DNA from: Catajapyx aquilonaris
Taxonomy: Eukaryota
DNA length: 64,000 bases
Direction: 5' to 3'
NCBI GenBank assembly: GCA_000934665.2
Contig: KZ538506.1
Span: 1 to 64,000, forward strand
The position numbers and the translations under genes were made by a program. The notes below the pieces were generated by a model. That model saw only the letters and a program-made list of their open reading frames with translations. It was not told the DNA's origin and made no database searches. The number at the start of each line of letters is the position of its first letter. Positions within the stretch are counted from its first letter, which is position 1. Positions 19,100-49,294 of the stretch are shown piece by piece.

Positions 19100-20219
19100 A
19101 TGGCTGGGAACTTCTGGCAGAGTTCGCACTAGTACTGGTCGCATTCCTACTATTTCAGCATTGTACTGTTCCATTGGGGACTAATGCAGTTTGTCGCAGA
19201 TGATGCATGATTTGGCTAGTTCTGATATGAGATCTTGCTAATTGCAGCCAGCAGTGGCTCCTGGACAAGCACGACCTGATTAGGGAAAGGCAACATGACT
19301 TGGGCATATTGGTTGATGATGAGTACCAGAAAGTCTTCATCTTTTTCTCCAACTGTAAGGAAGCGCGTCTATCTCCACTAGTAAGGGTCACTACACATTC
19401 CTTCTCCAGTGATTCAGAGTCTGGGCGAGCAGCTGAAGCTACGCCAGCAGGTGATAGCAACGGCCACGGTCTACTTCAAGCGATTCTATGCCCGCAACTC
19501 CCTCAAGTGCATCGATCCACTCTTGCTGGCTCCGACTTGCGTCTTCCTTGCTTCCAAAGTGGAGGAGTTTGGGGTGATCTCAAACAGCCGACTGATCTCA
19601 ACGTGTGTGACTGTTGGTGGGTATGAACGCGGATGACTTATTTTCTAGGCATGCATTGGCTCATTATGACCCCCCGTCCCAACAGTGAAGAGCAAGTTCA
19701 ACTACGCCTACAACCAGGAGTTCCCATACCGCACCAACCACATTCTGGAATGTGAGTTCTACCTCCTGGAGAACATGGACTGCTGCCTCATTGTGTACCA
19801 GCCTTACCGCCCATTGGTCCAGTACATACAAGACATCGGCCAGGAGGAGCAGATACTACCCCTGGCTTGGAGAATAGTCAACGACAGTCTCCGGACTGAC
19901 GTTTGCCTATTGTATCCACCCTACCAGATTGCACTCGGTATGCAGCTTGTCACATTTCAAGCTTACAAGGTGGAGCCAAGCGAAGCACTTAAGGAATTGA
20001 TGTTTGTGTTTTCCAGCCTGCCTTCAGTTGGCTTGTGTGATATTGGCCAAGGACCTCAAGAGCTGGTTTGCGGAGCTGACAGTGGACATGGAAAAAATCC
20101 AGGAGATCTGCCGCTACATCCTAAGCCTGTACGAGCTGTGGAAGTCATATGACGAAAAGAAGGAGATTCAGAACCTGTTGGCCAAAGTACCCAAGCCTAA
20201 GACGCAGCCTAGCAGGTGA
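19100..20219 (+). CDS. CCNC: Cyclin C (CDK8 module of Mediator), 5 exons, 266 aa (short form)
   Basis: Exons 19100-19131, 19248-19354, 19410-19616, 19686-19937, 20017-20219 (801 nt). Motifs: [66 protein letters not shown]. Confidence 0.97.
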
Positions 20220-21424: not shown

Positions 21425-23968
21425 CTATTCAGCTTCCGCATCGCTTCCCTTCTTCTTCTTCTTTTTCTTCTTCTTCTTCTCCTGGAAATACATTTCAAAC
21501 GCTCAGTACTTCCTCTTCCACAGGAAAGATTGCTGAAACTTACCGAACTCGGAGCTTCATCTGCACTTTCTTCACCGCCGCTCTTCTTTTCCTTTCCCTT
21601 TTTCTTCTTCTTTTCCTGGAAAAGAAGTAAATTTTGGAGCGCACTTTCTCTCAATAAGTGTATGCATCTATTTCTTTACATCACATGACATGTAATGACA
21701 TCAGAAAAAGATGCTGGCTGGTGAAATTTAATACCAGTTCCTTGCGCGTGGGCTTATGATTTCTGCCGTTTACGTCTACAGGACATTCTAACCAAACTTT
21801 CCCAAAATTATAGCGAAACCTGTATGTACCAGAATCGCTGCATTATGCAAATTTTTCTCGTAATGCACAAGTTTCTGCTATATTTGGTAATACTAAATTA
21901 TGAAAATAATTCAAGCATATTAACACATGGCAGAATTGGTGTCCCCAGATTTGTGAGATCTGGCAGAGCTATTTTTCTTGGCTACGCTTCATTCATGATT
22001 TGGAAGTGTCATTGCTCATGAGAACATGGAAACTCACAGATGTTGGTGGCTCCTCTTCTTCCTCATGCTCTTCCTTCCGCTTCTTTTTCTTCTTCTTCTT
22101 CTCCGAGGCAGGGAGTGATTCTGTGTCTGGTGTCGCACTTTCTCCACTTCGCTTCCGTTTCCGATCCTCTTTTGGCGTCTGGACGTCATTGGAAGCCTGG
22201 TGCACCTTGGAAGTGTTGTGCTCCTTGCTCTCCCCCTTTGAGTTAGGGCTGGAGAGAAGAATCCATTTAGGGGCAATCCCCACTCTCAACAAACACGCAA
22301 ACAGAATGAAGGACTCACTCGTAATCGACATATGTATTGAGCCAATCCTTCGGCGTGTTCTCATTTGGCTTCCCGTATTTGTCTAGCAGTCCACTCTTAA
22401 TCATGTTTTTCTTCGCAGAAGCCTACGCGGAGAGGGAAAACTTGTTAGCAAATCAGTACAGTACCCGAGAGCAAATAGAAATGTGAGGGCATTTTTACAA
22501 CCCCAAGTATAGATCAGCCTTGGGGGAGGTGACATCTATACCTTGGGTCCCAAGCCCCACTTTTTTGGGTAGGTGTCACGCTCCATGATGACGCGCTTGA
22601 TTTTTGCAACTATACCATGGTCGCAGCTTGCAATTGTTGCAGTCGTCATGAGCGCAATACCTGTGGACAGTCACAGGTTATTTTATGAAGTGATAAAATT
22701 ATGGTATGACTTTGAAAAAGGACAAACCCAAGCAAATGGCCTCTCCCTTGGTGGTGATGATAACGATCTCTTCATTAAGTTCAATCCCATCTTCGTACCT
22801 GAGGACTCCTGGCAGCATAACTTTGGCACCGTAACAGATTGCATTCACCTGGAAAACGGCATTATTTGTACCCATCCCAACTGACCAATCAGGCATCATT
22901 CAAGGGCAAATGAGTACTCACGGAGCTGTCTTTCATGATGATACGCTTGTGAGAGACTAGCAGTGCCTCCAGAGGCTGGATGACCCTGCGCAAGTACCTC
23001 TCGTCCTTGTGATTGTCAAACAGCCACATGGCATCCAGGATGTCATGCATGGTGACCAGGCCGTGCATCTCATTCTGTATCCCGGACCGGACTCGTCTTA
23101 GCTCCGCCATTTGACCTCCAACCCCAAGCAACAGGCCCAAATGGACACACATTGTACGCACATAAGTGCCAGCCTCACAGCTCACCCAGAATATACCTGC
23201 GAGGGAAGAGATCGATTAGCATAGTCTTTTATGCCATTGAAGAAGCCTACTGACCCATGTTTGTCTGATCATTATACTCGATCATCTTGCTCTCGTACAC
23301 TGTCCGAACTCTAAGCTGCCTCTTGACGGCCGATATGAGAGGCGGCATCTGGAACAATGCGCCTCTCAACTTCTCGAGAGCCATAATCACCTGCTTGCGA
23401 TCTGGAACTGCCGAATGCAATTTGAATATGCAGACGTACTCCTTCCCGGCTCCCTGCTGCGACTTGACCAGCCGGGTGGCCCTCTCTATGCAAACAATGA
23501 GGCAGCCAGTAACTTTGGGGTCCAGCGTTCCCGAGTGCCCTGTCTTGGCCACCCTGAGCATCCGCTTGATCCATGCGACGACCTCGTGAGAGCTGGGGTT
23601 AGAGGGCTTGTCCAGGTTGATGAATCCGGCTGCTATGTAGTCCTTAAGTTCCCGCTTCAAAGGCGAGGACCCGTGAGGAAGGGGGGTGTAATGATTGGTG
23701 CGGACATTCAGTCGGTCAAAGTTCTTGAGCAGCAGAGGCCACTGCGAGGCATCCAGCTTGGGAGTGACGGACGAAGGCTCCACCTGCTCCATCTTAATCT
23801 TCCGCTTCTTCTCCGATGCTGGAAAATTATGCCGTTTTAATCATATTATGCTGGCTCCACACTTGGAAGTAGGCCATGTGTGTTGTTTTTATCAATGTAA
23901 ACTTTGAACCCACGCCACCATGCCGCAAAAGGCAACAAAAGCATGCGCGTACCGGTGTCCGTGTCCAT
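21425..23968 (-). CDS. DKC1: Dyskerin / H/ACA snoRNP pseudouridine synthase (Cbf5/Nop60B), 9 exons, ~512 aa
   Basis: Exons 23968-23953, 23818-23255, 23196-22922, 22848-22728, 22660-22542, 22422-22319, 22248-22038, 21615-21544, 21481-21425 (1539 nt). Motifs: [51 protein letters not shown] (catalytic Asp), [12 protein letters not shown] domain, Lys-rich tail. Confidence 0.97.
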
Positions 23969-24355: not shown

Positions 24356-27300
24356 ATGGCCAAGATGGTGTTTCTTTCCCGAATTGCTTTCGTGTGCCTT
24401 CTAGTTGATGTCCTGCTCCTTGGGAACACTTGCAGGTACGTAAGGCGTTTAAATTATTGCGACAAATGCAAGATTATTACATAATTTGTATTGCAGTGCG
24501 TTTTCTGACATGGATGAAGATGTTATCATCCCTGCAGAAAGGGCATTAGGTATGTGCAGCCAGAGTGTGCATTGATTGCATTTTATGCGTCAGTGTTGTG
24601 TGTTTTGCCTGGAATAATTCTAATGCGATCATGTTCTTCTCAAGATGATGATCGCAGACCTGATGTCATAGAGAAGAAGCAGGGTGACAAAGAGACTGGC
24701 ACCATGGATGTTTTGGAATGGCCAGGTACAGTGTATTCATTATTATTTAAAATGATAATCGAAGGCGATAGGTTTCAAGCATTTACTCTCAACTGCTCTC
24801 AACACTTGTGAATGTTTTTCAGGCGAATCTCATGACGATGATTCTGATTGGGTGAGTACTCACTTTATTAATGGGCTTTCTAACATATAACTCCATATGT
24901 CAATATGGCATGAGCATCTGCAAAGTTTCTACTGGCGTGGATTGTGAGAAAAATTAAAAAACACGTGCTACATTGGCTGGCTCTTTCACATTGTACAACC
25001 ATCGCACTTCGTATTGTAGGTCAAATTTACTTCAACCAGGACTCATGCACTCTATGAATATCATGCTTGCAACATGGAGCTTGGAACAACATGGGCTGCC
25101 TATGGATTGTAAGCATTTTTGAACACTGAAGGCTGAGCATGTGATACCTTGGTGATACACAGTGTTTGGTCCTCGTATGAAGCATGGTCTTTTTTTCATT
25201 TCAGTGAGTACGTGTATGTCTCCAGTATCATGCTCACAACGTATGTACTTCCAATTCAGATTCCTGAGAGTGCAAAGAATGAGAGTAAGAACGTTGAGGT
25301 GCTTGATTTTCGATTCATGATTGACAAGCTTGTGGCAGTGACTGGCGACAATGTCTTGGTGCACAACTTGGATTCAGGAGAATCTGTTTTTGCTCCAGGT
25401 AATAAACTGTTGTAAAATTTTATCTCATTCATGCAATAATTTATTCTTTTTTAAAGGTGAAATTAAAACTAGAGTTACCAGAGTTGTGGTGAATTTGTGC
25501 TGCAATTTGGAAGACAGCTGGTGCAATTATGCCAACAAAATTGCAGTTGTGTGGGACCCTGATAATTTTGACAGGTGACAAATATTTTGCAGTACTATTA
25601 TTACATACTGGATGACTTTGGCAAGACAGCAAAATCTTTTGCGACATGCTTACAGGGTGTATGTATCAAGTAATTTTGATCCAATGGATGACGACCTCAA
25701 ATTCGTGGAGCGAAATGTGGAAGATATTGCAAAAGCTAACAATGCTATAAAAATACTGCATGTATCCATCCTGGCTGATTACCACGTTATTGCCATATAC
25801 TTCAGCGTTATGGCAGGAAGCACAACTGAGGTACTCTAATAACATGTTACACATATCTTGTTATCAACTGTGTGAAATAGGAATTAACACTGTGGAAAAA
25901 CTTATCAATTTCATTGTCCAGTGCATTATACCATTCCTCAATTTTTAGGCTTTGACGCACTACATCCCACTGGAGCAGGATAAGAATGGATCCATGCATC
26001 ACCTAGTGAACCTCGGCACGATGCCCTACAATGGCTTCTTCAAAGGGGAACGGTTCAGAGATGACTTTGGAAACTACATGTTCTGGGATAACAATAATCT
26101 GTGGTACACGGACAACTCTGGTCAGTTATTAATGCCAGTAACTCTCATGTTGATGGAAGTGGAGGGAAACAAGGTGATATACAAGAAAGCTAACAGAACC
26201 ATAATAGGAGAAGAGTCCGTCTGCAGGACTGTGAAAGGAGGCAGGTTTGCCATCCTGCAAGAGAATGGGGACATCCTCTACGGCCGCATGATCATCAACA
26301 CGGACTACAGGGCGTATATGTTCAGGGCCCAGGACAACTTCAAGAGGGAAGGGATGGGAATTGCCTTCAATCTCAATGGAAAGTTGGGTGAGACGCATTA
26401 ACTTTGTCTCTTGGTATATAACTTCACATGATCCCTTTTCAGTCATTGCGTATCCTCCAAAGCTCCTTAGGGACGAGTCGAAAATATTTCATCAAATGAG
26501 ATTGAAGGAAGAGAAGATTGATGTGTCCCAGAAGGTTCAGGAGTACATGCCATTTCTGGATGCCAACTTCCCAGAGGGTATTGGCAAATGTGAGGTGCAT
26601 GGCTTTCACACCAGTATTGTAGGGGACACTGCCTACCTGGACAAGGGATCGGATCTGAACTTTAAGGTTGCATTCAGCCAGTCTAACATTGACCATCCGG
26701 AGCTGATCATAAGCCTTTCCAATCCATTCCTTCTCACTGTCACTGCAAAACAACTTGAATCAGACAGAACACATCCAGAGAAGCATGTGCACAAGTGGAA
26801 TCTGCATGTCACATCTAAGCATGACGATGCAGTAACAGATGATTACGAGGGAGGTGAGATACGATCACCTTTGGAATTGAGTTTTTTTTTTTAACATTCT
26901 GTGCACATTGCAGGGATCACGCACTTGATGGTTGGGGCAGTAGGAGGCAACATCAAGTGCTTTGATCCACCAAGCAAAGTCATACACATGGGAATTGCAT
27001 GCCCGCCAAACAAGAAGATCCGAGTGATGTACAGGACAACGTAAGTTTATGTCATAAAGAATTTGATATTTTTTGTGTGACAACAATGCTATTAAATCAG
27101 TAGTGGTACAGACAACCGATGTAGTATAGTTGACCTTCAGCTTCACCTGGTGTACCACTTTTGACACTTTTAAATGCAAACATATCACAAAATTAATTCA
27201 CTTTCGTTTCATCAGCTTAGAAAATCTGACAAGCAGACAACATGGTAACGCAGATCTTTCAAAATGTGAAGGATTATCTGACTTTCAGAGAGAAAATATG

Positions 27301-29127
27301 AATTTGTCTAAAGTGCAATATATTGCACCTGCAGGATCTGGGGGTTAAGCAAAGACCTAAATCATTATAATAACTGTATGTCTGTATATGAGTCTGAATG
27401 CCTTCTTTTTTTCCAGGGCTCAGCTGATGTGTAATGACTACATCAATGACTACAAGTACACCATTACTAAAGGAAACTGGGACCCAAATGTGTTTAATCT
27501 AAACAAACATGGCGACAAGCATAAAGAAGTGTGACATAGAGCAGTGCAATTACCCTCGATGCTGTTATGACTAGCCAAATTGCATGTGATCAGCATTCTC
27601 ATTTCCAGGTGGTGGCCGAGACTGAGGAAGTGGATGCAGAAGGCAACCTCCATGCCAATTACAATTTTGAGGAGCTAGGATGCCCACTGGAACCACATGT
27701 GACAGACTCATTTGTACCTGAGGTGCACCTAATCGAAGGTGGGGTGGACAAGGGGGAGGTGGACGCTGACTATGTCATACATGAGGTGCATGGTCTAAAT
27801 ACCTTCACCTACAAGAAGAAAGTCAAGAACTCAGGATGCAAATACAAGCCACAGAGCTGGGACGAGATGTCTTCCAATTTGCAGAATTACAATGGGACAT
27901 ATGGTAGAATATGGACAAGAAAAGTGAGCCATGCAAACATTTTCCATTATTTTTTTTCCCATGTCAACAATGCTCAAAGTTTCATATATTGTATGGAATG
28001 CACGCATGTTTACATGAGGACATACTTAACTGCCATAGCAGTCTATGAGGCAGTGTTTCTCTTTGCTGAATGTTTCAACATCAGCCAAAATTATCAACAA
28101 TGAAGAGGAAAGCCGATTCATCAATAGCTGCAGCAGCTACGTATACACGTCATGTAAAATAACCTTAGCATGGCTGCTGGCAAAGCTTACCAAGTTTCAC
28201 GGCAGGGTTTTCTTAATTACTAATTCCATTTTTAGGGTAAGGAGCACCGAACTTGGGAAAGAAAATCCAGCAACAATAGTAATTTTAATGAGTTCGGTGT
28301 TTCCTGCCCTTAGCCAAGCTCGGGCTTCAACATTATTTTCACTTCCACATTTGCCTGGCATATTATAAAAGGACACGTTGCTTCCAGAACTACTTCGATT
28401 GCACAAAAGACCCTGTTGACTCATCTCGCTCGAAACTCTCTAAGCTCCCACCTAAAGACCAGGACAAAGCTTTTCAGGTGATGGGGAAGCGATGGGGAAA
28501 TGCTATCACATGGGGACCTTCAAAGCAGTAGTGAGTTCAAATCCTTAACCACTTCCATTCACAACATTTCGCATGGCTTGCTGTTGTCAGAATCAATCTA
28601 GGCATGTAATCAACTCTCTCTTTTCATTGGCTAGCATTTATGTTTTTGAAGTGCGGGTAGTTGACCCTATGTACACATACTGTGATCTGAGAACCAGATT
28701 TGGAGTCACAATTGGTGAAGAACTGGGGGAATCGCCTTTTCCTGAACTGGTACTGTGGGCTGTCACATGTATCATTGGTAAGAACGTTTTGAAAATTACA
28801 CCCCATTTTGCAGGGGAAAAATAACACCCCCCCCCCCTCTTTATTTCTCAAGGTTTTATTATGGTTGCCATATATTACCACATGAGCAAAACTTACGCTG
28901 CCCGCCAGGAGAGAGAGCATGAGCAGATTGAAAACTTTGAGGTGGCAAGCAGGCAAATCATGAAGGATGGAAAGGGAATGGCCACCAAGTATTCCAAGTG
29001 CCTGGACTCAAATACTTGGGAGCAAATAAGAAGGAACGTGGAGAGAGAGAAGATGAAGCAACGGCAGACATACTCTGTATTTACACCTTTCAGAAAGCTC
29101 ATGGATGCTCTGGGCATAGAGAAATGA
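24356..29127 (+). CDS. CATSPERD: Cation channel sperm-associated auxiliary subunit delta-like (CatSper delta/TMEM146 family; epsilon less likely), type I membrane protein, 16 exons, ~927 aa
   Basis: Exons 24356-24435, 24497-24549, 24645-24725, 24823-24851, 25020-25108, 25205-25398, 25457-25574, 25656-25830, 25949-26387, 26443-26853, 26914-27040, 27417-27528, 27609-27923, 28388-28530, 28635-28777, 28853-29127; all GT-AG, phase-consistent, 2784 nt with no internal stop. Signal peptide, large ectodomain, one C-terminal TM (LVLWAVTCIIGFIMVAIYY). Motifs match remembered CATSPERD: LPIQIPES, NLCC, WYTDNSGQL, GKCEV, ISLSNP, ACPPNKKI, YNFEELGCPL, VDADYVIHEVHG, CKYKPQSW, WTRKNYFDC, YVFEVRVVDPMYTYCDLRTRF. 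Confidence 0.85.
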
Positions 29128-29244: not shown

Positions 29245-32200
29245 TTACAGAGACATTTTTCTTCCTTCAATGCTGATTTGCACTGCTCGCTGGGTCTTAA
29301 GCATCTTCTTGCGTTCCACAAATGTGCGGATGTGCTTGTCCAAGCGAGAAGAAGTCTTCTTGGTGTTCTACAGAAAGTTATTCACAACGTAAATATGTCA
29401 TATTACATGTTGCGTAATGCATTACTTCATTGCAAAGTGGTCTGACTGCGATAAACATGAACAAAAAAGATGTTTGGTAACTCTTTCATTCTGAGCCAAA
29501 GGCAGGTCATTATTCCTAATCATACGATGGTCGTAATCACAGAGTGATGAACTTTCTTAGCAATAATAATGGGAGGCAATCCAATCAATTTAATGGAGTA
29601 TTCCAGTAGGACTCACCTTACTAATGTCAGTGTCCACATTCCACTTGGGTCTAACCACATAATCCTTTGTGGATGGCATTGGGACTCGTGCCCTTGGAAC
29701 CCACCCAGGGTCACCAGGCCGCAGAGCTCTACAAGTGCATAATTTCAATAATTATTTAAAAGGCAGTCAAAATATGAAAAATGGATCCAGAATCTGGATC
29801 AACTGATGCAATTTTTCATAACATATATAACATAATCAAGATGGGTGGACACCATCTTCATGGTTCAGAAAATCTTTGGGGGGAAAAGACTCATGACGTT
29901 TGATAGGACTGGGAAATCCAAAGCAGATTGACAGTCTCAAAAAACCTTCTGGCTGGTAGGCAACACTTTCACTTGCTAAACAGTACTTCAGAAAATTACC
30001 TTTAACATTATTAGTCAACTGCAAAAAATTCTGCATTTACACCTGTCACTAAAAACCACGGAAGACAACTCACTTCTCTTCCCCAGTCAACACCTTGTTA
30101 ATGTCTGGCCTGGGTGTCCGACCTCCTTCATCTGACCTCCTCCTCTTGGGCATTTGCTCGAGGTCACGCTGCTCACGCTCCTCTTTGCTCAAGGCTGTCA
30201 GCATGCAACAATTTAAAAAATTATCAGCAAATTTCAGTTGCAGCTTACACACTACTCATGTAAAATAATAAAAAATTCACATACACAAGCAAAAGACATT
30301 TGACAATGCATCACGCTATGACTGACAGTGAGTGAACATAGATATCAATACCTAGAAATAGACCCAACACTATTTAAACGTCACATCCTTTGCTTGCTAC
30401 AGTCCCGTTAAGGAAATTCCATTGGCCCGAACTTTCCTTTTCAGCACGAGAAGTAGTGTGGGTTACGAGAGAGAAGTTGTACGAACAGGGCTCACCTTTG
30501 AGATCAGCAGACAAATTAAAGATGGGTCTGGCCCACTCGTTGATCAGCCTACCAGCCCTCTCTTTATTCTCCTTGGTCTCCTTGGGATGCTTGTAGAGAT
30601 ACATGACTGCCTTCCCGATGCCAGATTCCTTAAGCAGTGACTGATCAATGTGTGGAAACTCTGGCAACAGCTTCATCAAGCTCTCTCGTATCCTGGGGGC
30701 AGGTAGGCTGCGGTCAGGCATTGGGGCCATCCAGTCTGTCAGCACCGCTAAGATGTTGTGCTCTAGAAAGGCCATCTGCAGGTCATGCTTCTTCAGCTGG
30801 GACATTACGGTTGGAAGCATGGCAATCTTTTTAGTCGCTGGCCGACGTTCACGATTCAGCTGGCGGTCTTCCTCTGATGCCACTCTCATGTCTGAGATTA
30901 GCTGCGAAATCAGGTCGTCATTGTCATTAATGATGTCAACATCTTTGCGTCGTCGTCTTCGGTACTGTTCACCCTTCTTGCGCTGCATCATCAAATCAAA
31001 GTCAGACTCCATGCTGCCACCATGCCTATGCAACAGAAAGAGAAAATCCTTCAGTTAGCAGAATGCTCTGAAGCAAACCACACCCTAAACATTTGCTGGA
31101 ACCAACCTGTCTCCATCGTCAATCCCCTCATCATCACTGTCTGACACGTCTGGAAGCACGACTCCCTCTGCCTTCTCTTTCTCTCCTGCTTCCTCAGGAG
31201 CCTCATCACCCTCCTTCTTCTTCACTTCCTCTCCCTCCCCCCCACTTTCAGATCCCTTCTCCTTGTCCTTCTCTTTCTCCACACCTTCATCTTCATCCTC
31301 ACTCTTCTTGCCTTCATCATCTGAGTGCCCTCCTGCTTTCTCATGGTCCGATTCAGAGTCTGAAGCCACATGGATTCTTCGCCTCTGTCAATTAATATTA
31401 ACATGTTAAGGATAACCAATTCATATCGCGGGATTATTATGAAAAAGATTACTACCTTCTTCTGAGGAGTCTTCTTCTCACTGTCGCTATCACTGTCGCC
31501 ACTAACAGACCCTCCCCTCTTCGCTTTGGTCCGCCCCACAACGGCCTCATCGTCACTATCACCATCGCTACCAGACTTTCTTCCCTTATCATTGCCATCC
31601 TCATTGTCACTGTCGACTACAGATCTCCTCTCCTCCACCTCATCATCTGAATTGTTACCTTTCCCACCCCCACCACGAGAAGGTCCTGGAGACCTTTGAT
31701 GGGATGAGGACCTGGATCCCCCAGGAGAGGAAGATCTGGATCTGGACCTGGATGAGTGGGAATTGGCAGGAGACGGGGATCTTGACGTGGCTTTCCGATT
31801 GGGAGATGGGGATCTGGAGGCAGCTTTCCTGCTAGGTGATGGGGAGCGGGATTCCGAACCAGATCGGGATGCGGCAGGGGAGTGAGAGGATGATCGTGAT
31901 CTGGACCCTGCAGGAGAAGGGGATCTAGGTCTGGACCGGTCACCTGCAGGCGAGCTACGACCTGACTGGCTGCCTGTAGGCGAGGCAGGGCCTGACTGGC
32001 TGCCTGCAGGTGAAGCAGGGCCTGAATGGCTTCCTGTAGGTGAAGCAGGGCCTGAATGGCTTCCTGTAGGTGAAGCAGGGCCTGACTGGCTGCCTGTAGG
32101 TGACGCAGGGCCTGACTGGCTGCCTGCAGGTGACGCAGGGCCTGACTGGCTGCCTGCAGGTGACGCAGGGCCTGACTGGCTGCCTGCAGGTGACGCCGGG

Positions 32201-32802
32201 CCTGACTGGCTGCCTGTAGGTGAAGCAGGCCCTGACTGGCTGCCTGTAGGTGAAGCAGGCCCTGAATAGCTGCCTGCAGGTGAAGCAGGCCCTAATTGGT
32301 TTCCCGCAGGAGAATGTGGCCCTAGTGGGGAACTTGGGCCAGATTGATTTGATCGAGGAGAAGCAGCTGGAGATTGGCTGGGTGAAGGGGAATGGGATCC
32401 AGAACGTGAGCGGTTGCTAGGGGTGGGGGACCCAGATCTGGGCTGTGACGGGGACATGGGTGATCCAGGGGGTGATCCAGATGGAGACCTGGGAGGGTAT
32501 CCAGGAGAGTCAGGAGGTGACACGGAAGGTGACCTAGGAGTTATTGCAGGTGAGCCAGGAGGTGATTGAGAAGGGGACCTTGGAGAAGGAGAGGCCGGGG
32601 GTGAATCAGGTGACCTTGGCATCACTTCAGGAGAGCCAGGTGGTGACCCACTAGGGGACCTGGGAGGTGACCCAGATGGAGACCTTATCCTGGATCTAGA
32701 AGCATGGCTTCCTGAGTTGGAAGAAGCATCATCGACGTCCATGTCCTCCTCAGGCTGATCCTGTTCAATGTCAGAGCTTGACTGGCTCATGTTTGTAGCC
32801 AT
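29245..32802 (-). CDS. IWS1: IWS1 (Spn1) transcription elongation factor, 6 coding exons, ~836 aa
   Basis: Exons 32802-31456, 31384-31107, 31025-30496, 30194-30074, 29728-29617, 29367-29245 (2511 nt). TFIIS-N-like core ([54 protein letters not shown]), [19 protein letters not shown]-terminal [14 protein letters not shown]. Confidence 0.95.
31942..32301 (-). repeat. Coding 30-bp tandem repeat, ~12 copies, encoding S(Q/H)SGPASP(A/T)G
   Basis: Plus-strand unit tga(a/c)gcagggcctgactggctgcctg(c/t)agg, visible with period 30. Confidence 0.95.
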
Positions 32803-33008
32803 TTGGAATTCTCTTCAGAAGATGCAACCCTGTAACTGTAAAGAAACCTATTTGTTGTACGTAACTCTAGAGGAGGGTTGTAAGTAAAGTATTGACAAGA
32901 CTGTCAGTAACTCAAATGCTGGCTCTCTTCATGGCACATACTCAGAAGTCGACACAGCCCATTCTGAAGGGCCTTCACAGGCCAAGACAGCCTTCATATT
33001 CACATGAA

Positions 33009-34165: not shown

Positions 34166-35341
34166 CGATTCAGACCCTCCTGACCGATCCGAAAATCCTT
34201 CCAGCTCAGCCGTGGTCTCACCACAGAGCAGATGAGGGCAGCAGAGCGAAAAACCGACCCCAATAAACCAGGGTTACGCGGCGGCCATATTGCCCCATCC
34301 GGAGAAGAGTTATCGCGCAAGGGTACCAGGCACACACCTCCTCCGCCACTTGCATCACTCTTAACCCACATCCAGTGCACCACTGGCACTTTTAAAATAT
34401 ACGGATTGTCTTGATCGGACGATGGAATTAAAATAAATAGAGTGCGAGATTAGTGGGTTGTAAAGGGGGAGGAGGAGGAGGAGATGGTCGGCCATGTTGC
34501 CTCCAGTTTTTTTTCCTTCCACATTTTCATCACATTTTATTATTTCCTCCCCATTTGAAGTGGAGGGGCCGCTGCACAGGAACGTGAGGTTGCTTCGGAT
34601 GGACATGGTTTGAGTGGTCTGGATGGTCCACACTTGTTATGGGGTGAAACCGTGGGTTCAGAGTTGGGGGGTGACATGTCCGCTCTTGACAAATGCATGT
34701 TGACCTGTTCTGGGTCAATGGAACAGGGGCCTTATGCCATTCGAGTGATGATGCTCGGTTAAATGAGGTCAGAACAGGTCAGGTGCACCCTTGCCTGCAT
34801 TGTCACCACTTGAAATTGGCAGGTACTACAACTGCATGAGTGACAATCAATTAGAGCCATTCGCGAGTAATGGTGTAAAGATTAAATTAATTCGACTTAT
34901 GAAGGCCTGCGTACACTGAGACTGAAGTTCAGTTGAAATCCAGCTGAAGTCCGGTCCAAGTTCTTAAAAGTCTGTCGTACACTATAGTATCAAACGATGA
35001 ACCCAAGGCTCCTCAACCTTTCTACCCTTGCGGAACCCTGAAAAGAATACTGATGTCTCAGAGAACCCCTACGTAAAAATTATTATACCGCAACTAAATT
35101 ACTCAAAAAAACATTGACATATGATTAGCCTATTCATCACTATAGTTCGTAAAGCGCTGGACTAACCCCTCGAATAAATTACTACTTGTACGAGTATTCT
35201 GAGAGGCAGCAAATACTGTACGTATGATTGCAAACAGCTTAGGAAGCATGTGCTGCAAATTGGCAATGGTCCTGCATAAATTACGGTGCTTAATCTCTTT
35301 TGCGTCCAATTTATTCATTGCCCTACTTGCAGTTCTGAGAA
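34166..35341. promoter_or_regulatory. Divergent promoter region IWS1 / UVRAG, including probable IWS1 non-coding first exon
   Basis: Strong minus-strand donor G|GTGAGT at 34166/34165 and tandem acceptors at 32836 and 32830 just upstream of the IWS1 ATG. YY1-like ATGGCCG motifs on the minus strand near 34285 and 34492. Confidence 0.45.
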
Positions 35342-37819
35342 ATGGCGTACCAGCAGGTGACCCCTCGTGGGAAGGAGTGGATCCCGCTGTGCACACAGCA
35401 GCTGCGTCTGCGCAATTTGCTGCAGATTTTGGCCACCAATTTGCAGTTGGATCAGGTTCCGGATGAGCAGCAGCAGGAGCGATCCCCGTGGCCCATTCAG
35501 CAGGGCGTGTCAGTTCATTACACGCTTCACGTGACTGTCATGTCGCCACCGTTTTATACTAGTGAGAAGATGTCGGATACGCCAAACCCCCGCTGGAAAG
35601 AGATTGAGCCAGGTCGATTTGCGCAGGATGTTAACACTGCCCTTCCAGGAGTGGTGGTCAGGATTTGGGCAACTGGGGACCGCCCCATGGGAGATCGACT
35701 GGTCACCATGTGGGGCGTGTTCTTCAGCGGACTCACTTACATTGGTCACTCCCCCCCTGTTAATCCAAAACTGTACTCAACCAACACAATACTGTTCCGG
35801 ATGCATGGAGGGTACTTCACTGCGGTTGATTGTTTGGCAGAACCCGTTGAAAAAGCACGTGTAATTCAGGCGTCAATGGATAAGGGCGAGGTGCAGCCAA
35901 GCTATTCGGTTAATTTGTTATCCCGCCTGCACATGATTCAGCGGGCAATTAGACAGCAGATGCAAGCATCTAAAAAACTGCGAGATCAAATCATCTCCAG
36001 GGGATTTGAGGATGCGCCAAACAGCCGTCGCCCACTAGTCACACGCCGGCTGATGTCGCCTGCTCGTGCGGCACAGCGCGGGACTATAATGAAGCTGAAG
36101 GTGGAAATGGAGGATGTTCGGTTCCGCGTTCGATTGCTCCAGGCTGAAAAGGAGGCCAAGCAGTACAAGATGCGCCGTCTCCTTACACAGTGCGAGGCGG
36201 CAATGGAATGTAACCAGGAAAAGGGTAGTGATCTGATGGGAAAGTTTCAGGATCTGCATAAGGAGAAGGAGAAGCTGCGGGAATGGGAATGTGCACACCT
36301 GGAGAGTCAGGAGGTGTTTCTGCAGACCCAGGCGCAGCTGACCCTTCGCCAAAAGCAACTCATCTCAGAATTGAATGTCATATATCCAATCGCACAGCTT
36401 CCCAGCAGCTTGTACACCATATGTGATGTGCACCTCCCAGACTCGGAGGATTTCATGGGGCATGAAGAAGTGATGATATCTGTGGCGTTAGGGTATGTGG
36501 CGCATGTGTCCCAGATGATATCACATTTCCTGCAGATTCCTCTCAGATATCCGGTGCTGCATTGTGGTTCTCGGAGCCGGATTATTGACCACATAATCGA
36601 CAAGCTGCCTGACAAGGATCGAGAGTGAGTTGATATTGGGTCGCTTTTAAAAAGAGGGAATAACACTGCGACTAATCTACAGTGCAAACTGTCTCATCAG
36701 TTGCGTTCACTTACCTGTTTGTCACTCGTTTGTTCCAGGTTCCCATTATACTCCAAGGGCAAGGACAAGTATCAGTTCAAATATGCAGTGTACCTTCTTA
36801 ACAAGGATGTGGCTCAGCTGCGATGGTACTGTGGCCTTCCCACACGTGATTTGCGTACTACTCTTCCCAACCTGGCTGGTCTGCTTCAGCTGTACCCTGG
36901 AACTGCCACGTATGTTACGAAAATGCAGAATTGGTTCAATAAAATTTCACTGGTAATCAGTAACATGTCTGCCACCTCCATGTGATGAAAATACTAAGTT
37001 TCATTGGCAGTGTGTGGGCAGTTGATTGGTATGTATTGTCTGAAAACGATGCGTATTCTTCCTTGCAGCATGCTTTCAGAGCCAACGCTTCCAGTATTTC
37101 CACGTAGACTGACCTCTCAGCCACCTGGGAAGTTCCTGCCGAGGATCGACCACCGTGACAGTGGTGGTGGAGGAAGTGATCCTGGGCGTGTCTCCATGGA
37201 CCTGGCTGCCTCCGAGCGCAAGGGACATCGCTACTCCAAGTCAATGGACATCCGTGACCTGAAGCTGATGGAGCTAACCCCACATGTGCCACCCACTGGG
37301 ACATCTGCAGACACTCTTGCCAACAGTGCCTCCCTGAGCTACTCCCTGGACAAAGGGCTGGATGAGTTTGAAGCCATGACCACATCGGGTGGGCGGATCG
37401 AGGGCAATGGCACAGCTTGCAGCGGATCTGAAGCCAGCCTAACAGTTGACGGAGAGCAAGATTCTGAGGTGATTGAGCAGGAGGATGAAGGACACAAGAC
37501 GCGGCAGTTCCTCCAGGAGTGGCACTCGGAGACACCACTGTACTACATGGAGGACGAGTTGGCACACACAGAAAAGGTGGTCCATGAAGAGGAGGTGGTT
37601 GTAAAAGAGGAACCTCTGGAAGCCAAAGAGGCACCTGCAGATGCAACAGAGGCACCGCCAGGAGAATCCCAGAAAGAAGTGCCAGAGAGCACTGCAGATT
37701 CAGACGCTGACTCATCTTGGGCTAATGTTGCCAGCAGGACGGAAGCCCTTGCTAATCGCACTCGCAGTTTCAATCTCGTGCGTTCCAGGCACAATACCCT
37801 GGAAGACTGCAAGTCATGA
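35342..37819 (+). CDS. UVRAG: UV radiation resistance-associated protein (Vps38, PI3KC3 complex II), 3 exons, ~734 aa
   Basis: Exons 35342-36624, 36739-36909, 37069-37819 (2205 nt). [15 protein letters not shown]2 domain ([22 protein letters not shown]), coiled coil, BARA2 ([46 protein letters not shown]). Confidence 0.93.
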
Positions 37820-38627: not shown

Positions 38628-40422
38628 TCACGCCTCCTGCAAGAGTATGTTGGTGGCCACCTGTATGTCATTGCTTGCGCTCCTCAGTGCCACTACAACT
38701 CTGTCCCGTTCAAACCCCATCTCCACTAGAGTTTGCACTTGCTCTTCAGATGGCGGGGGCGTATCTGTCGTGTAGGGGCAAATTGTACAAAAGACGTTGA
38801 ATGCATGACGCTTCACCTACCTTCGTGGTTGTGGTTTCCTCTGTTACGTAGGAGGCCTCCAAGCAGGGTGCCATTGTGCTGCAGGTAGTTGTCGGCTGGA
38901 CCCCCAACCAGCCTCTCTGCATAGCCTTGCCCTTGCTGCTGCCGGCGGAACTCTCTGGCTCTCTGCAGCAACATCTGCTGCTCCAGTTGTTCTAGTTGCT
39001 GCTGCCTTTGAAGCTCCAGAGTTGCACCGATGGGTCCCTCTTGCGGAGCTCTCGACTGCATCACCCAGCCAAGTACCTTTGCACTCACTTTTGACACCAA
39101 TTGGGGCACTGCCAACCAGCGTCTGACCCATAGGGCATTGGTACGGTACACCAGGCCTGCCACCTGAAAACAAGAGGAGGGTACATTACATTGCCTTCCT
39201 TCCACCACGTACCACAACATACGCACTACAGTCTGTTAAGCTAAGGAATAACATGACTTCACGTTCAGCCCGCCTCTCATGTTCCTGAATCGCTCTGGAA
39301 GCATGCTACTGTGCATGCTCAGAAAACACAGCTGGTGTGACGTCATGTCATTCTTTGGCTTGTAGTAACTTACAATGCCGCAGATTCCAGAAATGGCTGT
39401 TGCGACAGATGTAGAGCAGACCTGGAGCCCCAGTAAATAGGTGAGTGTTTTTCCGGTCACAGGAACCCCCAGGATGTGCGTTTGCGCCACCCTGGGGATG
39501 TCGAAAAAGTAGTTTACGAACAGTGGGAAGATGAGGCCGTACGGTCCCTGGGGCATGATCCCGCCATTGTGGAAGTCAAACTGGAAATACTGGAGCATCC
39601 AGATGGTGGCCACCTCCAGAAGCGTGGCCACCGTGCATGTGGCCAGCAAGTAGGAAGCAAACTTATGCGACCCATACCGCCGCTCAAACACACGGAAGTA
39701 GTAGATCAACAGTGCGCCACACACCAAGTCCTTCGTGTCCAGGAAAGTTATGCGAGACGTGAACAGACGCCAAATCTGCCAATTTGGGAAGGAAACCATG
39801 TAATTGGTGCACGTCCCTACACTGTACGCTGCAAACCATTCAATGAGCATCACTAGTGAGACTCCCATGGCGCATCAATTTGTGATGCTCCTTTGTTGCT
39901 AAAAAGCATTACAATTTAATTTTCAATGCTCTGGTAATGCATCTTTGTTGCTAATAAGTATTAGTTTTAATAGTATTGTAATGCTTTTTTTGTTACTAAA
40001 AAGCATTACGAGAGCAGGTGCGTTTACATGTGAGCGATTTGATTGCGCGATATTATCACAGTGATGAATCCAATTGTTTGGAGCAAAATCACGGTAACAA
40101 TCGTAACTCGGGTTACTCAGAGATGTCATCGCTTGGCAATCAAATCGCTCACATGTTACTGCACCTTTTAAAATTGATGCTGCATGGGAGACAGCGATCC
40201 TGTTTGAACGGTTTGCGGTTTACAGTGTGTACGTGAAGGCTAGCGACGTACCTCCTTCTTGGAGAGTATGTCTGGTATCCTGCACATGAGGTACTTCCTG
40301 AGGTGCGCCAGGAGAGGCATGTTGATTGCCGTGCACGTCAGGAACATGCACCCCATCAGGCCTTTGGACACCGGGGCCTTGTAGAACCCAGTCGTGCTGT
40401 ACTGAGACAGTATCGCCGCCAT
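38628..40422 (-). CDS. UBAC2: Ubiquitin-associated domain-containing protein 2 (rhomboid pseudoprotease + UBA), 4 exons, 350 aa
   Basis: Exons 40422-40252, 39775-39374, 39163-38821, 38764-38628 (1053 nt). Motifs: GFYKAPVSK, IWRLFTSR, YYFRVFERRYGSHKFAS, YLLGLQ, GATLELQRQQ, UBA SEEQVQTLVEMGFERDRVVVALRSASNDIQVATNILL. Confidence 0.93.
39853..40010. mobile_element. Partial copy of the 33812-33966 MITE family in UBAC2 intron 1
   Basis: Left end gtgagactcccatgg.gcatcaatt followed by aatgct/agcatt repeats; right end not identified. Confidence 0.5.
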
Positions 40423-41273
40423 CCTCTCACCTCAATAATATCTCCCCCTCAAAAAATGCTCAAATCAAAACCCTGGAAAGTACCCCAAAAACATTGTTAG
40501 CACTGCCGACCGCATTGTTGCCCCCTCACCCGCCTACCTAGGGCTGCAGACAGCTCATTGCGGGCCACTTGCCCCTTTCCCTTCTCCGCAGAAGAAACCC
40601 CAGTTTCACAAGCAGAAGAACCTTTTCCTTTTTGTCCCCCAATCGCAACAGATTTTGCTCCGGTCATAATTCGCATCGCGTCTAAGCAAAGTCGCCGCTA
40701 GTTGCCCGGACCACTAGCGGCTACTACCCCTTGCAGTCCCCTCGATACAAAAATAGCGGTTAGTTCCGTCCCGAATGGCAGCGGAGAAAAAATTAATTGC
40801 AATTAAGACCAATTAATTTGCATGGGTTGGCTCCATGGTGGGCGAGACAAACCGCGATGTAATTAAAACCCGGCTCGGAGGTTGATTACGGGGCATAATT
40901 TTGAAGGGACATGCAGCGCCGCCCTGGTGGCAGGTTGGTGAACTGGAGTGACCTCCCCGCCCCACCCCACCGCGGCCACTCTTTTGAAACGTGGGCGCCA
41001 AAAATAGATTTCCTGCCCAGTTTCCTCACATGTTTTTTAGGGTGCTTGGCCCTCCTCCTACTTCGCCCGGTCCACATCCGTTCACACAAAAAAAGTACCC
41101 ACAGCCTCCTAGTCGCATCAAGCAAAAGGATCCCAGGTAAGGTGCTTCCCTCATTATTGTGGTCAATTAGACTCAATAGGGTGGGCACATGCAGTCAGTG
41201 CATGTGCAATCAATTGAATGCAAAAAAAAAAAATGGACCGATGACTCACACGGTAATGAAATTGTCAGCAGCA

Positions 41274-44200
41274 ATGCCGCCAGTGAAGAAGTGCCCGGGT
41301 CTCAGCCACCTGTGCTTGGAATGCCTGGTACGGAACCTGCTGCAGGTGTCTACACGTCCTGACCTTTTCCGGTTTCGATATGAGCTGCGTCGCCACCTGC
41401 TGACCACATATCCTCCCGTGGTCCGCGAGGAGATCCTCTCTCGAGCCTTGATACGCTACCCAGATACGGCAGCCGATCTGATGACCCTCCTGCTGGATAG
41501 CCACATTAGGCGGTTGAGCTATGCCTATCGCCTTCCCTGGGAGTGTGATCCCGAAGATGCGGATGGCAGGAAGCGTGTGGACGAGACCCACCGCAGGCAC
41601 AACAAGTTGTCTGTCCTGGACTGGCATGAGCTCCTCACCGTCCTGGCCAGGAGTAACGCAGTCGGTTTGGAGACCTTGGTGGTCAGCGCATGGCTTGATC
41701 CACTAAGGGACTTCTCCCTGCTGCCTAGGATCAACACCCCATACCTTGGGTTTGTCAGCAGGATGAAGAATCTTAGAGAGGTAGAGTATTTGCCAACCTT
41801 CCTAAGACAAAAGAAAAGAAGCTTCATCTTTTGTTCACAACTTAGACTAATCAACAACAATCCTGATATTAAGAGAGGTCATGAAACAGCAAAACAAGCG
41901 GAAGCCTACAAAATATTTTTTTGGCTGGATACTACAACCTTGGAAATTGGGGCTGTGTATCGAAAAAAAATCCCAAAATAAACTGTTTTTGCTCTCTTGT
42001 CTAAATCCATTAGCCATGACATCTTGGCACTTCAGTGGGGTCAACGGTGCCAATGAATAGAAACGACCACTCCTGCAATTTTAGAAATGTTAAATGAGGG
42101 GTGTACGTGGTAGCGTCCTTGGCCAGAACTCGCAGTAATTTTTAGTGATGATCCAATAAGGGTGCTTACTGAAAAACAATACAGATTATTATTAGCATTA
42201 AGCGAATTCTAGTCCGCATGTAGCAAGTACAATCTGCGAAGAGAATCCTGCCAGAATAAGCTATCTTGCAAACCGATCGCAAAACCATGGTGGCATCCAA
42301 AGCCCAATATAGTCCAAGGGTTGGTTTTTCCTGGCTGCATCAGCACTGGGAAAAACCCAGAGAAACCAAACTTAGTCCATTGTCTTTAGCTACCACATCC
42401 AAAATAAAGCCACTGAATCTTTAAATCTGAATGAGTGTCAAACCTAAGCCTTCCGCTCCCCAACAACTAGTCAGCAACATGTGTGTTCCACCGCCACACA
42501 TTTAATGTATCACACACACGTTTTTTCCCTCCAGATTGTTCTTCAAGGTATGGCAGACAACAAGCTCCTGCTGGTGCTGGGTCAATGCTGCCCAGGTCTA
42601 GTGTGCGTGGATGTGACCCGTTCCTGGGGAGTTGATGACCAAGGAGTGTTCAGCCTCTGCCTCAACAATGGAGCCCTCCCTCCTCCCGACATTCCCCCCA
42701 GCAAATGGCCTCTCAACAGGTGCTGTCAGACCTTGGAGCGAGTCTGCATCCAGGACACCTGTGTTGGAGCCAAGGGTGTGCGGGTTCTGCTTCTTTCCCT
42801 GCCGCGACTGCAGTCGCTGGGAGGGTTCATCTACTACAGCAGCGTCGGAAGTGTAGTGCAGGATGCCAGCACGGAGGGAGCAGGAAATGAGGGAGGCGTG
42901 ACCTTTGAGCTGGAAGACCTGTGGGACACAGACATCCCAGTGTCCAAAGCAGCTCAACTGGCCTGCGCACTGCCCAAAGTACATCCCAACAGGATCTCTA
43001 ATCACAACCCTGACTAACTTCCTTCCATCCATTTTAACGGTACAGTAGCATCAAGTTGTGGAAGTCTCGTAACCCCCATGCACACAAGCTGTAGGTTACT
43101 GGCTTAGTACCAACTCTCCACAGACAATGGCCTCTAAGATATGTAAATAGACTCTCGCTGCCAGAATTGACGCCATGACTTGCAGGAATAATCCGCTGCT
43201 TATTAGCTGGAAGAGGTATTTTTAAAAGATGTAATTAGTTGCACAATTAGGCGGAGGATCATAAAATATCAGGATTCCTTGTAAGCTCCATTACTTGTAT
43301 TCAATGTAGGCTATACAATATTTCCACGCATCAGGAGAACTCACAGGGGTGCTTATAAAAAAGGAATAACTTCAAGCTGTGTACATAAACTGATCTCGCA
43401 AGTTGCATTACACACTTTAATTGTGTAAGCAGCGGCTGACATTGAATGATCCCTCCTGCATGGTGAAATGGGTTTATTTATGCAACTGGCAAGTTTCTCT
43501 AAACACTGAATGAACTCACGCTTGGCACCTGTGAAACTGTAAAATGCAATCCACATAATTACTAATTACTACCTAACAATAATCCTTGCACCTTGACCAG
43601 AATTCCTGGTAGTTGACAAATCCAACTCTTGGATTCGTCTAAATAAACAGATGTTCTGAGAGCCTGTTAATTGGGTGTTGGCAAATCTGGCCTCACGCCA
43701 TTAATGAGGCAATTTACAGTTTGGTGCTCTCTGATCTTTTGCCAATCCCAACACACTGGACTTTTTCCAGGTGAAAGAGCTGTACACGTGTGGGGAGCAC
43801 GTGGAAAGTGCTTCTCTATTCACCAAGATGACCCGTCTGACTGTTGATCTTGACTTTCGTGACTGGCGGGATCCACTGGAGTCATACCTTACAACATGTG
43901 GGTCCGCACTGACTCATCTAGAACTGCGAGATCAGAACCACCCTTTGGACCTTCGTGTGGTGGGTTCATCTTGCCCTTCCCTGAGACGCCTTGTGTCAAA
44001 GCTGGAAGGTGGCTGGGATCCAGAAACTGATGAAGGATTGCTGCTGCCAGGGCTTGCGAGCTGCTTCGTTGGTTTCCAGTCACCAGAAACCATGGTCGAC
44101 TTCCTGAGCTACACACAAGGCTTGCAGCATGCAGACATATGCATGCTGGAGGTAAGAAATCTTTATCAGTGGACATTTGATGTGCATGCCTATACTACGG

Positions 44201-44550
44201 CAATGGAGCAACTCTGTAATATTTTCCAGACTGATCCATTTCGCCCAGCAACTTCCCAGATTGACGACACCCACCTGTCACTGGTACTGTCACGTGAGGG
44301 TCTTCGTAACTTGTGCTCATTCTCGCTCCGAAGTCCAGAGTTGCTCAGCCTCTTCACTCTACGTGCTCTCCTTCACTCCTGCCCAAATCTGCGCTTCGTA
44401 GGCCACTTGCAAAACTGGGGGCTGCTTGAATCTTCCGAGATTGCCAGCTTGGAAAAAGAGGCAGCATCGCACAATTGGGACTTCATCTTCTGGGAGACAT
44501 CGGCCGACCTACCCTTCCCCAAGCGAGTTCCTATTTCCAACCGTATGTGA
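41274..44550 (+). CDS. Uncharacterised leucine-rich-repeat (RNI-like/LRR_CC) protein with N-terminal BC-box-like motif, 4 coding exons, ~550 aa
   Basis: Exons 41274-41780, 42535-42978, 43771-44151, 44230-44550 (1653 nt, all phase 0); probable 5' UTR donor CAG|GTAAGG at ~41137. LRR motifs: LGQCCPGLVCVDVT, LERVCIQDTCV, LPRLQSLG, CPSLRRL, LLHSCPNLRFVG. N-terminus MPPVKKCPGLSHLCLECL. Confidence 0.8.
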
Positions 44551-49224: not shown

Positions 49225-49294
49225 GCAGAGTTAGCTGTGTGGTAACACATCCGACTCTCAATCGGGAGATGCGGGTTCAAATCCCGTTCATCAG
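49225..49294 (+). pseudogene. tRNA-Glu(CTC)-like pseudogene or tRNA-derived SINE head
   Basis: A-box tagctgtgtggt; anticodon arm tccga-ctCTCaa-tcggg; T-arm gcggg-ttcaaat-cccgt. The acceptor stem does not pair. Confidence 0.55.

Follow-up and report, generated by a model that had tools for sequence, protein, structure and literature searches.

In mammals and sea urchins, the sperm flagellum is controlled by Ca2+ that enters mainly through CatSper, a channel that has been lost many times. According to the parts of PMC13484710 that deal with the mouse canopy, four single-pass subunits, delta among them, cover the CATSPER1-4 pore with a canopy built of their ectodomains. The contact between beta and delta in this canopy is made early and is required for pore assembly and fertility; without it, the pore subunits are destabilised, CatSper current and hyperactivation are absent and males are infertile (PMC13484710). 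We analysed a 64,000-nucleotide stretch of contig KZ538506.1 (positions 1 to 64,000, hereafter referred to as the window) and found, at 24356-29127 on the plus strand, an intact and very divergent gene of the CatSper delta/epsilon family. It is probably the gene for a delta-type auxiliary ('canopy') subunit in a hexapod genome, with a function read by analogy with the mouse. The finding is notable since flies and many other arthropods have lost the CatSper channel.

The record of CatSper in arthropods is patchy, as an earlier note on this DNA had stated and as is already in print. The arthropod pattern is called 'heterogeneous' in the relevant part of Romero and Nishigaki (2019; PMC6660944). 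Cai and Clapham (2008) described the loss of CatSper in many lineages, yet their account includes a CatSper4-like expressed sequence tag from a springtail (PMC2572835), and the passage on losses in Cooper and Phadnis (2017) places arthropods among the lineages that lost the whole set (PMC5553355). Zhao et al. (2026) tabulate 47 CatSper-bearing species, and in rows 1-17 of their Table 1 the sole arthropod is the springtail Orchesella cincta (PMC13674862). For the auxiliary subunits, Chung et al. (2017) place delta after epsilon, saying, on the basis of 17 genomes, that it 'appears later in evolution' (PMC5362262, in the section concerned). Among the papers covered by our literature search, none describes a CatSper auxiliary subunit in an insect.

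An intact 16-exon gene

The 16 exons of the locus were rebuilt from their coordinates alone (Table 1). All 15 introns (55-464 nt) are of the GT-AG type with a pyrimidine-rich tract before each acceptor, and the spliced coding sequence of 2781 nt comprises 926 codons and a TGA stop, with no internal stop codon. The region has about 41-43% G+C and is eukaryotic DNA. Stop-to-stop open reading frames on the plus strand contain the gene in fragments only, the biggest coding pieces being exons 9, 10 and 13. For exon 14, the donor at 28527 was adopted because it restores the frame, as the sole donor to do so, and because homology continues across the junction; a donor at 28477 was ruled out, as it breaks the frame. 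Exon 3, with a length that is a multiple of three, could be a cassette exon that is skipped without a break in frame.

Homology to delta-type proteins runs through most of this model. The spliced product matches a profile of 13 delta-type proteins far beyond chance (residues 84-851 against profile positions 43-748 of 753; E 4.4e-110, Z=1). The junctions of exons 5-16 are validated by this alignment, because it passes through all of them in one unbroken stretch.

The order of parts in the product is a signal-like N-terminus, a short acidic linker, a large ectodomain collinear with delta (propeller, Ig-like and CATSPERD/E C-terminal parts), a single membrane-spanning segment and, over about the last 80 residues, a charged tail, which is a type I layout as far as hydropathy tells. 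Topology was called from a Kyte-Doolittle scan only, with no dedicated signal-peptide predictor. Residues 1-30 (windows >1.6; signal-like) and 821-847 (transmembrane) are strongly hydrophobic, and a single 19-residue window at 248-266 is marginal, barely over the threshold. About 55 acidic residues separate the signal segment from the propeller, and the product holds 17 cysteines and four N-x-S/T sequons. Among the 63 columns conserved in at least 11 of the 13 delta proteins, the product keeps 47, including all 9 cysteine columns. The earlier note had proposed 16 GT-AG exons splicing in phase, visible as fragments in the open reading frame track, and a product with a signal peptide, a single transmembrane segment and a cytoplasmic tail; each of these features was recovered, the signal peptide as a signal-like hydrophobic segment. 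The short motifs that it had likened to those of mammalian CATSPERD all occur in the translation in the stated order, most of them on conserved columns of the delta profile.

Membership in the CatSper delta/epsilon family

Exons 5-16 were scanned against Pfam as 12 separate, unspliced pieces, with bit scores judged against the Pfam cut-offs (Table 1). Exons 13 and 15, each on its own, exceed the cut-off of PF22850, the CATSPERD/E C-terminal domain, and do so at collinear profile positions (58.5 bits for exon 13). With the matches of exons 9 and 10 to the delta propeller and Ig-like families, the four matches follow the delta domain order. Families specific to CATSPERE, CATSPERB or CATSPERG gave no match at E<=1 in the 12 pieces, and exon 8 gave a weak unrelated one (L51_S25_CI-B8, E 0.087). 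Searches of solved structures paired exon 13 with mouse delta (7eeb_G, 1e-10; 9ubw_G, 8.5e-11) and mouse epsilon (7eeb_H, 2.5e-9; 9ubw_H, 2.2e-9), the remaining seven of the 11 listed sequences being noise (E>0.5). Exon 15 matched the mouse delta chain (0.0012) better than the epsilon chain (0.071), in line with the delta type. The PF22850 matches, the mouse chains and the whole-length profile together bear out the family membership that the earlier note had suggested.

A HMMER search with exon 13 over 1.84 billion protein representatives retrieved 82 proteins at E<=0.001, of which 57 were scanned with Pfam and the 25 shorter ones left out. PF22850 was present in 53 of the 57. Pfam labels divide the true relatives into a delta type with the delta propeller and/or Ig-like domain, an epsilon type with NTD1/NTD2 and the epsilon propeller and Ig-like domain, and unlabelled proteins, mostly of about 1000 residues, with PF22850 and at most few epsilon-type domains. 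P0001, P0044, P0047 and P0055, which are Ig-repeat or low-complexity proteins without PF22850, were set aside as chance matches.

Exon 13 is at most about 40% identical to any library protein over a long alignment. Homology searches based on words can miss genes of such divergence. A word-index search with exon 13 examined 29 candidates and gave no match; another with an alignment returned just its own first sequence, P0031. The ESM Atlas gave no usable match for exon 13. Folded alone with a 33-row alignment, exon 13 reached a mean predicted local distance difference test score of 58.4 and a predicted template modelling score of 0.39, too poor for a fold search.

The top-scoring match of exon 13 was P0001, a protein of 2771 residues (E 1.5e-25) with 10 matched stretches, which carries Ig_3, I-set and PKD repeats and a Por secretion tail. 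Its match at 27711-27860 (exon 13 residues 35-84) hints at a resemblance between a portion of the CATSPERD/E C-terminal domain and a repeated Ig-like module.

Probable assignment to the delta type

The product is very likely of the delta type, mainly in view of the whole-length profile match and the missing epsilon N-terminal domains. Three profiles built for this purpose, from 13 proteins of the delta type, 12 of the epsilon type and 20 of the epsilon type plus unlabelled forms, scored the spliced product at 354.7, 143.2 and 225.3 bits, respectively, a lead for delta of more than 200 bits over epsilon and of about 130 over epsilon-plus-unlabelled. BLASTP alignments with delta-type proteins ran near end to end (P0031, 5.5e-51, 24% over 722 residues; P0007, 1.8e-50 over 773), whereas those with epsilon-type proteins covered almost only the C-terminal part, from about residue 469. 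Near-full-length matches were thus confined to delta-type proteins, and P0031 is named by NCBI 'cation channel sperm-associated auxiliary subunit delta-like [Tubulanus polymorphus]'. The epsilon NTD1, NTD2, propeller and Ig-like families (PF22841, PF22843, PF22844 and PF22849) had no match at E<=1 in the 12 exon pieces, and the delta-specific families were the only N-terminal ones seen, below cut-off. In a quick IQ-TREE delta/epsilon tree (35 rows, 814 columns, no outgroup), the window protein stands on the delta side together with the 13 delta proteins and P0030, with 99% support for the delta/epsilon split (Shimodaira-Hasegawa-like approximate likelihood ratio test, SH-aLRT).

Several observations weigh against the delta assignment. 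Forcing the protein to the epsilon side lowered the log-likelihood by 6.6 and was not rejected (approximately unbiased test, AU, p 0.072). In the tree it sits on a very long end branch (2.03), and it differs in composition from the rest of the alignment. PF15020 and PF23747 stayed below the Pfam cut-offs, single exons having been scanned, and phmmer found no CatSper chain in the PDB for exons 9 and 10, the best matches being unrelated (E >=0.0096). These matches (lectins, phage lysozyme, a thioredoxin-like protein) were set aside as weak. Over long alignments, identity to library proteins reaches about 24-29% at best, which leaves no close orthologue for a test of purifying selection.

The same observations bear on the alternative that the gene is orthologous to CatSper epsilon, or undifferentiated between delta and epsilon, and owes its delta look to fast evolution and long-branch effects. 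We consider this unlikely. It gains from the AU result, from the long branch and deviant composition, and from the near-equal matches of exon 13 to the two mouse chains given above; the 13 delta-type proteins have 611-819 residues, and the product, at 926, is closer in length to the epsilon type. However, this extra length is accounted for by the linker, insertions and the 80-residue tail. The propeller starts at residue 84, compared with about 170-260 in epsilon-type proteins with an intact N-terminus, and the propeller and Ig-like parts are aligned by delta-type proteins only. The profile scores and the lack of epsilon-type N-terminal domains point the same way. The likeness to CATSPERD given in the earlier note holds as the better fit (BLASTP, tree and profiles) and falls short of decisive, given the AU p value and the delta Pfam domains below cut-off on single exons.

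Comparison with described CatSper components

The window protein shares with mouse CATSPERD (7EEB/9UBW chain G) the type I single-pass layout, the conserved cysteines, the lack of an epsilon-type N-terminal domain and the C-terminal CATSPERD/E domain, in which exon 13 corresponds to chain residues 553-639 and exon 15 to 686-723. The mouse protein is shorter (805 residues), whereas the window protein has an acidic linker after the signal segment, a longer charged tail, and propeller and Ig-like parts too divergent for a direct match. The delta-like protein of Tubulanus polymorphus, its best full-length match, covers the propeller, Ig-like and C-terminal parts and lies on the same side of the tree, but it comes from a nemertean, thus another phylum, and has an end branch of 0.99 compared with 2.03. 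CATSPERE (7EEB chain H) is likewise a single-pass canopy subunit with PF22850, but it differs by a pair of N-terminal domains and by propeller and Ig-like families of its own, none of which was detected in the window protein. Within hexapods, the springtail accounts cited above give a CatSper4-like tag of Onychiurus arcticus (PMC2572835) and CatSper1 of Orchesella cincta (PMC13674862), which shows that some hexapods have retained parts of CatSper. Both are collembolan pore subunits, whereas the present gene encodes a candidate auxiliary subunit and comes from a genome in which UVRAG groups with polyneopteran insects.

Proposed role of the gene product

By analogy with the mouse, we infer that expression, partner subunits and function in this animal would be the same. 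In spermatids, the ectodomain would join beta, gamma and epsilon in an extracellular canopy above the CATSPER1-4 pore. This canopy, as in mouse work, would be needed for channel assembly, stability and delivery to the flagellum, and the channel would supply the Ca2+ entry by which the flagellar beat is reshaped. A complete CatSper complex with Ca2+-controlled sperm motility, as the earlier note had proposed for this lineage, would be plausible.

We give little credence to a further account, in which a delta-type gene outlived the pore subunits and is now decaying or serves some other function at the cell surface. Insects with incomplete CatSper sets are known, since Heliconius melpomene is reported to keep just two of the four pore subunits, and some arthropods keep none (PMC6660944). 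The butterfly counts against assuming a complete channel here. The protein is also extremely divergent, the locus lies head to head with a housekeeping gene, and no partner gene turned up, although no genome-wide search for partners was made. Under decay, however, neither a frame open over 16 exons with 15 canonical introns nor the retention of 47 of 63 conserved delta columns with all nine cysteine columns would be expected. In the mouse, as presented in PMC13484710, delta is without a known role outside the channel and its level drops when the beta contact is disrupted, and CatSper genes are described as lost as a set in the passage of PMC5553355 on their loss. That the gene model is an artefact of frame-keeping splice choice, with no such mRNA, is hardly credible: exons 1-4 (residues 1-81) are short and without homology support, standing on splice consensus, phase and the signal-like segment, and the mRNA as a whole is predicted from sequence, but arbitrary splicing cannot give the continuous delta homology through the junctions of exons 5-16.

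Placement of the host and implications for CatSper evolution

The earlier note had read the genome as arthropod-like, and a UVRAG gene in the window (Pfam ATG14/Vps38 family; Table 1) narrows this to hexapods. The UVRAG piece has 182 relatives at E<=1e-10. Among the 120 matches listed, the 14 best named ones are all insects, namely the stick insect Bacillus rossius (46%), twelve Hemiptera (36-46%) and the katydid Anabrus simplex (53%, with 72% of the query aligned); a scorpion (38%) is the highest-ranking named species outside the insects, and no springtail was seen. A tree of the window piece and 38 rows picked from these 120 (28 named species, comprising arthropods and four outgroups, and ten unnamed proteins; no non-insect hexapods) placed the window inside the hexapods, in a group of five rows with Bacillus, Anabrus and two unnamed proteins (96% SH-aLRT). 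The window branch is long (0.72) and the tree is of one gene. A hexapod host is supported by these matches and the tree, and a polyneopteran affinity is tentatively suggested.

If true, an intact delta-type subunit in a hexapod other than a springtail would offer a lineage for studying CatSper biology in an insect and would help to date the CatSper losses within Hexapoda. Together with the nemertean delta-like protein, the window gene argues for a separation of delta and epsilon before the protostome-deuterostome split. A broader proposal, which we put forward as possible though somewhat doubtful, is that a hexapod whose UVRAG groups with polyneopterans, not springtails, runs a complete CatSper channel, that one or more lineages of Insecta proper would have sperm motility under CatSper control, and that the delta/epsilon duplication would predate the protostome-deuterostome split, against the late appearance of delta given in that section of PMC5362262.

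Neighbouring features of the window

Table 1. Exons of the CatSper delta-like gene and other features of the window, with Pfam matches of the separately scanned exons
Feature	Position	Strand	Content and basis	Pfam match
Exon 1	24356..24435	+	ATG at 24356, donor CAG/gtacgt; signal-like hydrophobic segment, residues 1-26; no homology support	
Exon 2	24497..24549	+	53 nt, acidic linker; AG/GT sites and phase; no homology support	
Exon 3	24645..24725	+	81 nt, acidic linker; AG/GT sites and phase; no homology support	
Exon 4	24823..24851	+	29 nt, acidic linker; AG/GT sites and phase; no homology support	
Exon 5	25020..25108	+	Delta-type profile match starts at residue 84, about base 25026	
Exon 6	25205..25398	+	Beta-propeller region; profile alignment unbroken over both junctions	
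Exon 7	25457..25574	+	Beta-propeller region; CC...C motif (Cys 190, 191, 198), Cys198 on a conserved delta column	
Exon 8	25656..25830	+	Beta-propeller region; profile alignment	
Exon 9	25949..26387	+	Beta-propeller region; tblastn with P0031, 3.1e-08	PF15020 (Beta-prop_CATSPERD), 18.6 bits, cut-off 27, E 0.0013; below cut-off
Exon 10	26443..26853	+	Propeller end and Ig-like region; profile alignment	PF23747 (Ig-like_CATSPERD), 14.8 bits, cut-off 27.8, E 0.041; below cut-off
Exon 11	26914..27040	+	Ig-like region and start of C-terminal domain (C-P-P-N-K-K-I); Cys572 and Cys586 on conserved columns	
Exon 12	27417..27528	+	C-terminal domain; profile alignment	
Exon 13	27609..27923	+	Core of CATSPERD/E C-terminal domain; mouse delta and epsilon chain matches	PF22850 (CATSPERD/E C-terminal domain), 58.5 bits, cut-off 27.4, E 8.4e-16, profile positions 17-103
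Exon 14	28388..28527	+	C-terminal domain; donor GCA/gtagtg, frame and profile alignment	
Exon 15	28635..28777	+	End of C-terminal domain (V-V-D-P-x-Y-x-x-C-x-L), first half of transmembrane segment from about 28741; hydropathy	PF22850 (later profile part), 30.0 bits, cut-off 27.4, E 4.5e-07, profile positions 150-183
Exon 16	28853..29127	+	Second half of transmembrane segment to about 28884, charged cytoplasmic tail of about 80 residues, TGA at 29125-29127	
UVRAG gene piece	35339-36628	+	429 residues	ATG14/Vps38 family
Cyclin C gene	19670-20152	+	Cyclin C-terminal domain	
Dyskerin gene, large coding exon	23247-23840	-		DKCLD, TruB_N
IWS1-like gene and Ser/Pro-rich frame beside it	30374-31054, 31222-32814	-	TFIIS/Med26 helical-bundle domain; 530-codon frame	
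Weak rhomboid-domain protein	39236-39874	-		E 0.00021, just under cut-off
Three open frames	40905-41981, 42448-43017, 43735-44550	+	189-358 codons	
Partial tRNA-like match	49237-49287	+	Rfam, 35.4 bits, model positions 10-63 of 71	

The CatSper gene is the only delta/epsilon-like stretch in the window, as none of 53 tblastn high-scoring segment pairs from 25 queries fell outside the locus. The dyskerin gene stands head to head with it, the large coding exon of dyskerin ending about 516 bp upstream of the CatSper start codon, and a short bidirectional promoter may serve both genes. Between 3713 and 61100, short runs of N, 138 in total for the window, represent assembly gaps, none of them within the CatSper locus.

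On the minus strand, an IWS1-like gene lies beside a frame rich in Ser and Pro with many near-identical G-S-Q-S-G-P-A-S-P repeats. The three open frames on the plus strand, which have no Pfam match at E<=0.001, may be exons of one unannotated gene. The tRNA-like match drew no ARAGORN call and may be a tRNA-derived repeat.

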